Below are positions 12,001 through 15,000 of a stretch of DNA of 64,000 nucleotides, in pieces. The position numbers were made by a program. How positions within the stretch are numbered: the first letter of the stretch is position 1; the number at the start of each line of letters is the position of its first letter. This DNA comes from Thermodesulfobacteriota bacterium (GTDB taxonomy: Bacteria; Desulfobacterota; Desulfobacteria; Desulfobacterales; C00003060): the NCBI GenBank assembly GCA_034189385.1, contig JAXHVD010000008.1, positions 1-64,000 on the forward strand, given 5' to 3'.

Positions 12001-15000
12001 GAGAGACGACTGGCTTACCTGCTGCCTGGTTCGTTCCCAGGTTTTAAGACCTTTATCTCGATCATGCTGGCCCTCGATCCCAGCTTCAAGGTCCTGGGCC
12101 TGGAGATCATGGAGCACGAGGAAGACCCCGGGCTAGGTGCGGAGATCGAAGAGGAGTATTTCAAGCATCAGTTCAAGGGGAAGACCTTTGAAAGGATCAA
12201 GACGATCGATGTCGTCAGAGAGCCCCTGCCGGAGCAGTACAAGAAGTACCTGGAGCGTTCAACCTGGCAAGAAGGTGCCTTTACGGAAGAAGAGATTGAA
12301 GAGATAGGAAGGACCTACGAGGACAAGGACATCTATGCGATCACAGGTGCTACGATTTCCAGCAAATCCGTGTCCGATGGGGTCAGGAATATGACGAAGC
12401 GGTTCTCCTACCGGATGGGAAGCCTTGATCGTGTCATTGCCAGTCAAGGCGTGGAGGTCCTATTTTGAGGAAAGAGAGTGGCAGCTAGGACAAAGACGAA
12501 TAAAGAGCTCTTCTTTAACGGCATCTTGAACGAAAATCCGATTTTTCGTCTGGCCCTTTCCATGTGCCCGGCCGTGGGGATCAGCACGACCGTCATGAAC
12601 GGGCTCCTTCTTGGCATGGCCGTCCTTTTCGTGCAGGTCTTTTCGAGTTGCACCATCGCCCTCATCAAGGACTACATCCACCCCAGAATCCGGATACCCA
12701 CCTATACGCTCACGATTGCCACCTGGGTGACGGTCATTGACTTGGTCCTGGCAGCCTATGTGCCGGTGGCCTACAAGGCCATGGGGATCTTTGTGAAGCT
12801 TATCGTGGCCTTTGCCATCATCACCATGCGCCTTGAGATGTTTGCTTCCAAGAATTCTGTCACGGCCTCTTTCTGCGATGGCCTTGGCATGGGGCTGGGG
12901 TTCATGTTCGCCATGATGACCCTGGGTTTTGTCCGGGAGCTTCTGGGAATGGGGACGGTGCTGGGATATGATGTGCTGGGCTTTTGCCCCCTTCTTTTCT
13001 TTGTCCTCCCGTCGGCCGGTTTCTTTGTCGTGGGCCTGATGATGGCGATGTTTAACTACATAGAGATCGTTTACAACCGACGGAAAAAGGTCAAAAGATA
13101 AATGAAAGAAAGGATGCGCCATCTCACGCTCACAGGTTTGCTTCTGGTGGCCATTCTTGTCTCGGTGGGATGCGATACGGGGCACCGCTTTGTCAAGAAG
13201 ACGGAATTCAAGGACGGGGAGACAATTGTCATCACCTTTGCCGGACCTGTGGACGAGGCTTGGGCAAAGGAGAAGGCCAACTATGCGGTCTACGAGGAAC
13301 CAGACCCGGATATCCTGTTGCCTATCAAGGAGATTCGTCTAAGTCCCGACAGGACCAAGGTGACACTTAGCTTTGACGATGGGCTGAACACGAGACAGGC
13401 CCACGTCTTAAAGACGAAAGAGATGCTGTCTGAAGGCAGGTCTCAGGGGACAGCGGTCCTGACGGTGAAGAAGCTCTATTTCGGGCTGCTCCTTTCCATT
13501 TTCATCGGGGCCATGCTGGTCAACAATTTTGTCTTTACCAAGTATCTGGGCCTGTGTGTATTTTTTGGCACCTCCCAGCGGAAGTCAACGGCTGTGGGCA
13601 TGGGCATCACCTTTACCATTGTGATCGTCTTTGCCGCCATGATGGCGTGGGCCCTGTACCAGTTTGTGCTCAAACCCTTCCAACTCACGTTTTTGAACAT
13701 CGTGGTCTTTATCGGTCTTGTATCGCTCTCTGTCCAGGCAGTGGACACGATCCTCAGGAAGGTCAACCCTGCCCTGTTCAAGGCCTTTGGGGTCTATCTC
13801 GTTCTGGTCATTGCAAATTGCATTGCTATTGCCGTGCCCTTGATCTTGGCAGACAATGAATACACAGGCCCGGAGAGTTTTATGCTGGCCCTTGGGGCCG
13901 GTCTGGGATTTCTTGTGGCCCTTTTCTTGATGTCTTCTGCCCGCGAGAGGCTGGAACTGGCCAATGTGCCGCCCTCATTCAGAGGGCTCCCCATTGCCTT
14001 TATCGTTGCAGGGCTCTTTGCCCTGGCCTTTTTGGGTTTTTCCGGCATGTCCATCCATTGAGGAGGGGTTGTGCAAAGGCCTCATAAGAATATGGAGTGC
14101 CCATGGATCCGGCGTTAATCAAACTGGCCCTTGGCGGTCTGGCCGTTTTGGGCTGCATCGGGCTCTTTTTCGGTATCGGCCTGGGCCTGGCGGCCCACAA
14201 ATTCGCCATTCAGATCAACCCCAAGGTGGAAGAAGTCATCGAGGTCCTGGCAGGGGCCCAATGAGGTGCCTGCGGCTTCCCAGGGTGTGAAGCTTACGCG
14301 GAGGCGGTGGTAAACGACCCCGATGTCCCGCCAAACCTGTGCTTTCCCGGTAAGGAGGAGGTTGCAGAGGCCGTGGCCGCCATCACGGGCAAAGCGGCGG
14401 GGGCCGCGGAAGCCCTGGTGGCGGTGGTGCACTGTTCCAGGGTCCAGGGGGGTGTGCACAAGAAGTATAAGTACACCGGCCACCAAACCTGCGCTGGGGC
14501 CAGCCTGGCATTTGCCGGTCCCATGGGGTGCCAATACGGTTGTCTTGGTTTTGGAGATTGCGCGGCCGCGTGTCCCTTTGACGCCCTTCACATGGTAAAG
14601 GGCTTTCCAGTGGTAGATCCAGAGGCCTGTGTGGCCTGCGGCAATTGTGTGCATGCCTGTCCCAAGGAGCTTATCAAGCTCATTCCCAGAAACGCCCGCG
14701 TGATCATCCCGTGCAGCACGAAGGATAGCCCCAAGGTGACCATGTCCGTCTGCAAGGTGGGGTGTCTGCACAACAGGGCCTGCATCAGGAAATGCCCGGC
14801 CAACGCCATCTCCGAGGTGGACGGGGTCGTGACTGTAGATCAGAAAAAGTGCATCGCCTACGGCCCGGCCTGTAAGGAAGTCTGTCTCTCTGCCTGTAAG
14901 AAAGTCCATATACTCCAACCCATGAGTCTTGAGGGAACCTATAAGAGGCTCACAGAAGCGGCGGCCGCCTAGGATTCAAGGAGAAGACCATGTCTCGGCA

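Follow-up and report, generated by a model that had tools for sequence, protein, structure and literature searches.

The rnfB gene of a Thermodesulfobacteriota bacterium is, by our estimate from sequence comparison with a probability of roughly 85%, one intact gene whose codon 54, a UGA, is recoded as selenocysteine (Sec). The gene lies in the window analysed here, i.e., the first 64,000 nucleotides of contig JAXHVD010000008.1 (Table 1). With translation table 11, two separate frames result, 14097..14264 with 55 aa and 14307..14972 with 221 aa, and the split at a TGA had been reported in the genome-wide survey's note. Only one in-frame TGA is found, and reading through it gives a product of 289 residues, in which the junction reads LAGAQ-U-GACGFPGCEAY. 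When U is taken as C, this product matches the family model NF005503 (named PRK07118.1-2) over residues 8-275 at 377.4 bits, where the cut-off is 252. Gene callers mis-split a real rnfB. When contigs from four public runs are compared with the gene, the three bases of the TGA are unchanged among the 40 differences listed, 94 more differences existing. The contigs are of DNA, and none of the public runs listed for this stretch is of RNA.

Table 1. Features of the rnf locus discussed in the text (positions in the window)
Feature	Position	Strand	Basis and remarks
rnfC	9110..10459	+	TIGR01945, 477 bits; no in-frame stop
rnfD	10469..11557	+	TIGR01946, 328 bits
rnfG, long form	11503..12468	+	family match covers residues 160-301 only
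rnfE	12478..13101	+	Ala113 at the position of a metal-ligand Cys in canonical RnfE
rnfA	13102..14061	+	about 130 additional residues at the N-terminus, lipoprotein-like
rnfB CDS	14103..14972	+	289 codons including one predicted Sec codon; ATG 14103, TAG 14970-14972
Hydrophobic N-terminal segment, putative membrane anchor	14124..14195	+	about residues 8-31; aligns with the N-terminus of 7zc6_B
TGA, codon 54, probably read as Sec54	14262..14264	+	first position of the U-x2-C-x4-C-x17-C motif
Predicted cluster-binding motif of the FdI (PF04060) domain: U54, C57, C62, C80	14262..14342	+	PF04060, alignment
SECIS-like hairpin	14272..14299	+	nt 11-38, with the U of UGA as nt 1
apbE-like FAD:protein FMN transferase gene	14990..16030	+	NF007774, 113 bits, below cut-off; directly downstream of rnfB

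The best matches of the read-through product in the PDB are three RnfB chains, 7zc6_B, 9eri_B and 8ahx_B, the first of which is matched over residues 15-239 (E 7e-55). In all three, the first Cys of C-x2-C-x4-C-x17-C falls in the TGA column, so that the survey was right in placing the TGA at the first Cys of the N-terminal motif, and the columns of C57, C62 and C80 likewise align with Cys. This region is matched by PF04060 at 37.6 bits (residues 49-81), and the four ligand columns are invariant across the aligned relatives, the rnfB row being written with C for U. The CxxCxxxxxCx17C motif of the corrinoid iron-sulfur protein is cited in the structural report (PMC9588780). Further downstream, a C-terminal polyferredoxin domain is recognized by Fer4-type Pfam matches (residues 146-193) and by the alignment with 7zc6_B, which extends through residue 239. 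At the other end, residues 1-29 of 7zc6_B are described as a transmembrane helix in the part of the structural report available to us (PMC9588780). The three solved complexes, 7ZC6 (C. tetanomorphum), 9ERI (A. woodii) and 8AHX (A. vinelandii), share the RnfB architecture and the operon with this locus, but they have Cys at the UGA position, and their RnfE keeps the second ligand Cys that is Ala113 here.

How is the TGA distributed among relatives? Thirty rnfB orthologues with 52-81% identity were collected from a scan of 37 genomes of the genus and a scan of 401 genomes of the order. TGA stands at the same column in 21 of the 30, and TGC or TGT occupies it in the other nine. The survey's note had left the position of the TGA in relatives uninspected, and all 21 TGA-bearing orthologues carry it in exactly the codon-54 column. 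A set of 80 named loci, which overlaps with the orthologues, comprises 55 with TGA, 24 with Cys and one unmatched by the search motif; the TGA-bearing loci include those of Desulfonema magnum 4be13 and Desulfosarcina alkanivorans PL12, and the locus of Desulfosarcina variabilis is a Cys form. The 76 Sec rows of these sets correspond to 63 distinct 66-nt sequences. Conservation of TGA at one column, with only Cys as the alternate, is more than chance would give. In codons 45-53 and 55-72 of the 21 Sec genes the residues are kept while synonymous variation is present, and this combination on both sides of the TGA indicates protein-level selection in one frame. In the tree, the Cys forms are nested in a clade (SH-aLRT 94) that contains all 21 Sec rows, and at least eight changes between the Sec and Cys states are required, six of them forced by starred branches. 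All nine genomes with a Cys form retain selB (eight above the cut-off, and one cut by a contig end). The exchange of Cys for Sec looks beneficial but dispensable.

According to the description of bSECISearch, a bacterial SECIS element is reportedly a hairpin shortly downstream of the UGA with a G in its apical loop. The RNAalifold consensus of the 21 Sec sequences contains a SECIS-like hairpin, with a lower stem of nt 11-13/36-38, an upper stem of nt 14-18/28-32, a C20-G26 pair and an apical loop N-G-G-R-U at nt 21-25. Its pairing is kept in 97.9% of cells among the 63 distinct Sec sequences. The apical GG(R)U at nt 22-25 is in a position similar to the loops of two genes of the same genome, selD (CGGGA, nt 20-24) and fdhA-1 (GGUC, nt 22-25). 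It is to be noted that the segment is not thermodynamically distinctive (MFE -7.0 kcal/mol, z 0.01; z 0.51 for the 69-nt fold). No compensatory change on both sides of a pair was found in the 63 sequences for either of two candidate structures, shuffles equalled the observed values in 500 of 500 trials, and a search of Rfam at E up to 10 gave no family match, only three irrelevant weak hits. A shorter rival hairpin (nt 11-16/22-27) is paired in 100% of cells, so that the SECIS element may have either the long form (nt 11-38) or the short one (nt 11-27).

A different kind of trace is left in the codons. Among 101 conserved degenerate codon columns of the 21 Sec genes, only three use a single codon, and these three, 58 (GGC), 61 (GGG) and 63 (GAA), are all inside the hairpin; the invariance of codon 61 is confined to the first 21 genes, as the wider set has GGA in 18 and GGT in one of 63 sequences. 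Distinct Sec and Cys sequences also differ: C stands at nt 15 in 63/63 Sec and 10/27 Cys sequences, a purine occupies nt 24 in 62/63 Sec and 12/27 Cys sequences, and for A at nt 30 the counts are 59/63 and 15/27. The conserved peptide CGF(P/A)GCEAY also fixes most of the hairpin positions. It is this constraint at synonymous sites, specific to the Sec forms, rather than covariation or folding energy, that supports a candidate RNA element downstream of the UGA.

Might the TGA simply be a true stop codon? In that case rnfB would be a pseudogene, or would be expressed as two pieces, a 53-residue membrane peptide and a soluble protein restarting at GTG 14307. Public databases do contain such fragments, as 220-221-aa proteins (76% of the query) and 53-aa pieces, and they correspond to the frames that table 11 yields. 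However, a restart at 14307 loses residues 55-68, among them C57 and C62 of the motif, and in all 21 Sec forms just these residues are conserved while their codons vary synonymously. A pseudogene should gather further stops and frameshifts, while 20 of 21 rows have none within the aligned gene, the remaining row having an extra TAA at the match end. With the other rnf genes intact, and with 63 distinct sequences sharing the TGA at a single column where relatives have Cys, we consider a true stop scarcely credible. The UGA may instead be read by a route other than Sec, through a near-cognate Trp, Cys or Arg tRNA or a local suppressor, and the hairpin would then be a by-product of the conserved peptide. 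In favour of this reading, the RNA structure shows neither compensatory changes nor unusual stability. Against this, the genome has complete Sec machinery: tRNA-Sec with anticodon TCA (72.2 bits, cut-off 47), selB (370 bits), selA (612.6 bits) and selD (388.8 bits), the last with a TGA of its own, together with several classical selenoprotein genes, as three of eight FlpD/MvhD matches and two Fdh-alpha matches also bear TGA. Moreover, Cys is the only alternative residue in relatives, which is the signature of Sec sites, and Sec forms are constrained at the synonymous positions nt 15, 24 and 30, where Cys forms encoding the same peptide vary more freely. Decoding as an amino acid other than Sec is thus very improbable.

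A subtler alternative accepts that Sec is inserted and denies that it is a permanent ligand of a cluster. The U-x-x-C pair would then form a redox-active selenenylsulfide, for example as a switch for cluster assembly or as protection of an exposed mobile domain. UxxC is the motif class to which the catalogue of selenoproteins assigns the family, and most UxxC selenoproteins in its table are thiol oxidoreductases (PMC9312934); the FdI cluster has never been well resolved, as far as the available parts of the structural literature describe it (PMC9588780; PMC12174285). Nevertheless, FdI has exactly four conserved Cys/Sec positions, spaced as in a known [4Fe-4S] site and invariant in the aligned relatives, and if Sec is removed as a ligand, only three ligands are left. 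We therefore think that this alternative, too, is improbable.

The following course of events is proposed. SelB with Sec-tRNA(Sec) would insert Sec on recognizing the hairpin at nt 11-38 past the UGA, and the product would be a 289-residue RnfB which, by homology, is laid out as a membrane anchor, a small flexible FdI domain and the C-terminal polyferredoxin domain. In FdI, Sec54, Cys57, Cys62 and Cys80 would form the ligand set that holds one [4Fe-4S] cluster, and it would follow from this set that the selenolate most likely replaces one thiolate ligand of the cluster. To judge from homology, Sec ligation is the most likely arrangement; ligation by the four residues, even in the Cys forms, rests mainly on the motif and on models. 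Where in the electron path would this cluster stand? The survey's note had placed it at the low-potential entry point of the complex. That placement does not hold, since ferredoxin docks on the C-terminal polyferredoxin domain of RnfB in the available sections of the structural papers (Vitt et al., 2022, PMC9588780; a 2025 RNF/NQR review, PMC12174285). In the same sections, the N-terminal FdI is described as flexible and as carrying the last cluster of RnfB, which hands the electron on to the metal centre that RnfA and RnfE hold between them, and FdI is poorly resolved in all three cryo-EM structures (PMC9588780; PMC12174285). In Rnf complexes the FdI cluster is the last cytoplasmic station, swinging between the polyferredoxin clusters and the membrane metal centre of RnfA/RnfE. 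There is a chance, which we put slightly below even, that the selenolate of Sec54 truly ligates the [4Fe-4S] cluster of this swinging FdI and measurably changes the potential of the cluster or the rate of electron transfer to the membrane centre. This would be the first natural Se-ligated Fe-S cluster at the coupling step of a respiratory ion pump, in an Rnf subtype with a rebuilt acceptor site.

Sec is found at a metal or cluster site in formate dehydrogenase, [NiFeSe] hydrogenase and MvhD/VhuD-type proteins. The likeness to RnfB is that Sec replaces Cys in a low-potential redox protein of anaerobes; the difference is that those sites are catalytic Mo/W or Ni centres or belong to a [2Fe-2S] protein, while RnfB would have Sec at a [4Fe-4S] cluster that only transfers electrons, in an ion pump. 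The selenoprotein family itself is not new. It is already in Table 1 of a catalogue, under a generic name, in the UxxC class and as an in-silico prediction (Zhang et al., 2022, Biomolecules 12:917, PMC9312934), so that the novelty proposed by the survey falls away. The catalogued family and this RnfB belong to the same conserved-domain family (NF005503 = PRK07118.1-2) and have the same Sec motif, U54-G-A-C57; the entry, as it appears in the available part of the catalogue, states neither that the protein is RnfB of the rnf operon nor that Sec is a cluster ligand on a mobile domain. The catalogue's representative is ABC78902.1, and the match was judged from the sequence of ABC78901.1, which adjoins it by accession and is the 53-residue N-terminal piece of Syntrophus aciditrophicus rnfB, ending ...LAGAQ just before the Sec position. 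The source cited for the entry (PMC2398784, text and four supplements) contains no Rnf, Fe-S, Syntrophus or ABC78902. The five selenoproteins in the available part of PMC5109826, in which the survey had suspected a listing, exclude RnfB, and our literature search found no paper identifying the family as RnfB or testing its selenium chemistry. In Table S3 of Peng (2016, PMC5029168), which covers 25 organisms and 28 proteins, RnfC is the sole entry named Rnf and RnfB is absent. That selenoprotein RnfC is a different subunit and family from RnfB, and rnfC of the present genome has no TGA. The RnfC-like entry of the 2022 catalogue appears, in its available part, as the proline-reductase-associated protein PrdC (PMC9312934). 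For D. autotrophicum HRM2, the accessible text gives at least 31 selenoproteins "and others (Table S3)" (PMC2702500).

In public databases and in the output of gene callers the gene appears as two pieces, an 'exported protein' of 53 residues and a ferredoxin of 220 residues, and Rnf therefore looks incomplete in many genomes of sulfate reducers and syntrophs. Nature provides close versions of one predicted cluster ligand, Sec and Cys, some of them in cultured strains. Such a pair is a ready-made comparison for the effect of a selenolate on a low-potential [4Fe-4S] cluster.

The gene order around rnfB is rnfCDGEAB, in which the first five genes occupy 9110-14061 in the same orientation as rnfB, and rnfB closes the operon as the survey had described. 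Is the Sec of RnfB linked to the Cys-to-Ala replacement in RnfE? This idea was rejected: among loci with RnfE in reach, Ala is present in 50/50 with Sec and in 21/21 with Cys. Cys133 of RnfE as a compensation for the missing ligand was rejected as well, since 65 of 71 relatives have Trp there. RnfE of this Rnf subtype has a new conserved cysteine, Cys58. The Ala in place of the ligand Cys, this Cys58 and the lipoprotein-like extension of RnfA are the features by which the acceptor site of the subtype would be rebuilt.

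The reading frame of rnfB contains a single internal stop, the TGA at 14262-14264 (codon 54, hereafter Sec54). Translation table 11 splits the gene there into a 55-codon ORF (14097..14264) and a 221-codon ORF restarting at a GTG (14307..14972), and gene callers give rnfB as these two ORFs, cut at the TGA. The read-through protein, which the genome-wide survey's note had assigned to RnfB by the NCBIfam model NF005503, indeed scores 377.4 bits against a cut-off of 252 over residues 8-275 (the model, named PRK07118.1-2, is titled 'RnfABCDGE type electron transport complex subunit B'). 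It also matches PF04060 at residues 49-81, and its closest solved relatives are the RnfB chains from three Rnf cryo-EM structures. When it is aligned to these three chains, the TGA falls on the first Cys of C-x2-C-x4-C-x17-C, as the note had claimed, and the remaining ligand columns are occupied by C57, C62 and C80; its placing of rnfB at the end of the rnf operon likewise agrees with the order rnfC-D-G-E-A-B at 9110-14972. As far as sequences can tell, this rnfB is almost certainly a genuine gene with a real, conserved Sec codon, mis-split by annotation, because the Sec/Cys pairing among relatives, selection acting both before and after the TGA, the Sec machinery of the genome and an RNA signal all agree.

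Features of the rnf region and their coordinates
Feature	Position	Strand	Remarks
RseC/MucC-family membrane protein ORF	8502-9086		directly before rnfC; PF04246, 33 bits
rnfG	11503-12468	+	321 residues; family match limited to residues 160-301
rnfE	12478-13101	+	residue 113 (12814-12816) is Ala
rnfA N-terminal extension	13102-13491	+	~130 residues ahead of the canonical RnfA match (starts at residue 130)
rnfB	14103-14972	+	ATG 14103 to TAG 14970-14972; 289-residue product when read through
SECIS-like hairpin	14272-14299	+	RNAalifold, 21 Sec sequences; nt 11-38 from the U of UGA
apbE-like gene	14990-16030	+	adjoins rnfB downstream; ApbE 113 bits, far under the equivalog cut-off of 498

Scanning every one of the 37 genomes in the genus-level group gave 17 other orthologues (68-81% identity), 12 with one TGA and 5 without, and a sample of 401 genomes from the order added 12 from other families (52-65% identity), 8 with a TGA and 4 without; all 18 matches listed at 40-44% identity in the latter sample lack it. 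The position of the TGA in relatives, left uninspected in the note, proved to be uniform: 21/21 TGAs share one column (…GAQ-U-G/A-x-C-G-F…), where the other nine orthologues have TGC or TGT. Among named genome records, a pattern scan picked out 80 loci, 55 with TGA, 24 with Cys and one unmatched by the motif, a ratio (55:24) that is not an estimate of frequency, as Cys had been written into one of the two search patterns at this position. TGA is found in loci titled Desulfonema magnum 4be13 and Desulfosarcina alkanivorans PL12, and Cys in those of Desulfosarcina variabilis and Syntrophus buswellii. It is to be noted that the named loci overlap the orthologues from the genus and order scans, and that the 76 Sec rows reduce to 63 distinct sequences. 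Among Sec genes, codons 45-53 and 55-72 vary synonymously with their residues conserved. Thus, the stretch from the TGA to the next possible start is translated in frame.

The genome encodes tRNA-Sec (72.2 bits; anticodon TCA by ARAGORN), selB (370 bits), selA (612.6 bits) and selD (388.8 bits). Besides rnfB, selD, three FlpD/MvhD genes and two formate dehydrogenase alpha genes each have a single in-frame TGA with a hairpin downstream. The selenoproteome of this genome (G000) is sizeable, with loci L057, L062, L063, L065, L069 and L071 on contigs C29, C23, C28, C62 and C34. Five PF04060 domains are encoded, and only that of the window's rnfB contains a TGA. A second RnfB-like frame, of 703 codons on contig C56, has Cys at the motif.

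Downstream of the UGA, the predicted hairpin carries an apical loop N-G-G-R-U at nt 21-25, whose position matches the G-rich loops of selD and fdhA-1 in the same genome. Only 3 of 101 conserved degenerate columns in the 21 Sec genes use a single codon (58 GGC, 61 GGG, 63 GAA), and all lie within the hairpin; GGG at codon 61 is invariant in these first 21 only, 18 GGA and one GGT being present among the 63 Sec sequences. At nt 15, C is found in 63/63 Sec and 10/27 Cys sequences, although the identical Gly is encoded; a purine at nt 24 (62/63 versus 12/27) and an A at nt 30 (59/63 versus 15/27) are likewise commoner in the Sec set. There is good support for a constrained RNA element here. Its exact fold is not well supported, the long hairpin (11-38) and a shorter rival (11-16/22-27), which is paired in 100% of cells, both being candidates. 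In stability the hairpin does not exceed shuffled sequence (-7.0 kcal/mol, z 0.01; z 0.51 for a 69-nt fold), no pair shows compensatory changes, stem variation being all one-sided (G-C to G-U), shuffles equal the observed covariation scores in 500/500 trials, and no Rfam family matches the element.

A quick maximum-likelihood tree built from 36 RnfB rows unites the 21 Sec rows in a single clade (SH-aLRT 94), where nine Cys rows are nested among them, and the outgroups, namely Syntrophus RnfB (P0125, P0060), P0013, P0072, P0113 and the long-branched L047, all have Cys. At least eight changes between Sec and Cys are needed, six of which are forced by well-supported branches, and the sister loci L021 and L020 have TGA and TGC at the codon with one synonymous change in the next 60 nt. 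Since selB is retained in 9/9 genomes with the Cys form and Cys rows are nested, the swaps are gene-specific, and Sec and Cys are exchangeable at this site of RnfB.

Is such a protein new, as the note had proposed? Table 1 of Zhang et al. (2022; PMC9312934), as far as available, catalogues the family as an in silico prediction under a generic name. Cluster look-up showed that ABC78901.1, a 53-residue 'hypothetical exported protein' of Syntrophus aciditrophicus SB, ends …VLAGAQ and is the N-terminal piece of rnfB cut at the equivalent codon; the catalogue's representative bears the accession directly after it, and the link to rnfB goes via this neighbouring accession. Therefore, the family had already been listed under a name that conceals its RnfB identity, so the proposed novelty is not supported, and the present rnfB joins an already catalogued predicted selenoprotein family. 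PMC5109826, on D. multivorans, which the note suspected of listing RnfB, does not have it among the selenoproteins in its accessible portion. Table S3 of Peng et al. (2016; PMC5029168) includes RnfC and lacks RnfB, and RnfB was not found named as a selenoprotein in the literature searched.

According to the available sections of Vitt et al. (2022; PMC9588780) and of a 2025 RNF/NQR review (PMC12174285), RnfB consists of an N-terminal transmembrane helix, a small ferredoxin-like domain of high mobility (FdI), in which four Cys form the motif for a single [4Fe-4S] cluster, and a C-terminal polyferredoxin domain, at which electrons from ferredoxin enter. The FdI cluster is the last in RnfB and shuttles electrons to the metal centre of RnfA/RnfE in the membrane; FdI is poorly resolved in all three Rnf structures (PMC12174285). 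The note, in placing Sec at the ferredoxin-facing entry point, chose the wrong end of RnfB, as ferredoxin docks at the polyferredoxin domain; by analogy, Sec54 would sit at the electron hand-over to the membrane core. Sec54 most likely ligates the FdI cluster, for the one reason that it belongs to the four-position motif. Cultured carriers of both forms make predicted Sec insertion, Se-Fe ligation and any effect on the pump testable.

Unlike RnfE of C. tetanomorphum, with Cys109, and that of A. woodii, with the matching Cys, RnfE here has Ala113; in the part of PMC9588780 available, this Cys belongs to the four ligands that hold the metal centre in the membrane. Ala113 is shared by all 71 named relatives in which RnfE could be reached (50 carrying Sec-RnfB, 21 carrying Cys-RnfB) and, among orthologue loci of the genus and order scans, by 18/18 Sec and 6/7 Cys forms, the last having Thr. 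Cys58 of RnfE, conserved in 69/71 relatives and Val in 7zc6_E, might be a relocated ligand. The RnfA extension may be a lipoprotein-type domain, judging by its signal-like start and by Cys24, which is conserved in 62/72 relatives; neither the extension nor residues 1-159 of RnfG match any Pfam family, and the ORF before rnfC matches no NCBIfam model. The apbE-like product begins M-S-R-Q-Q-N-N-G-E-E-M-D-R-R-T-F-L-K, a twin-arginine-like leader as judged by eye, and the ORF at 6543-7289 weakly matches a tandem-95 repeat domain (NF012211, 49 bits, under the cut-off of 90).
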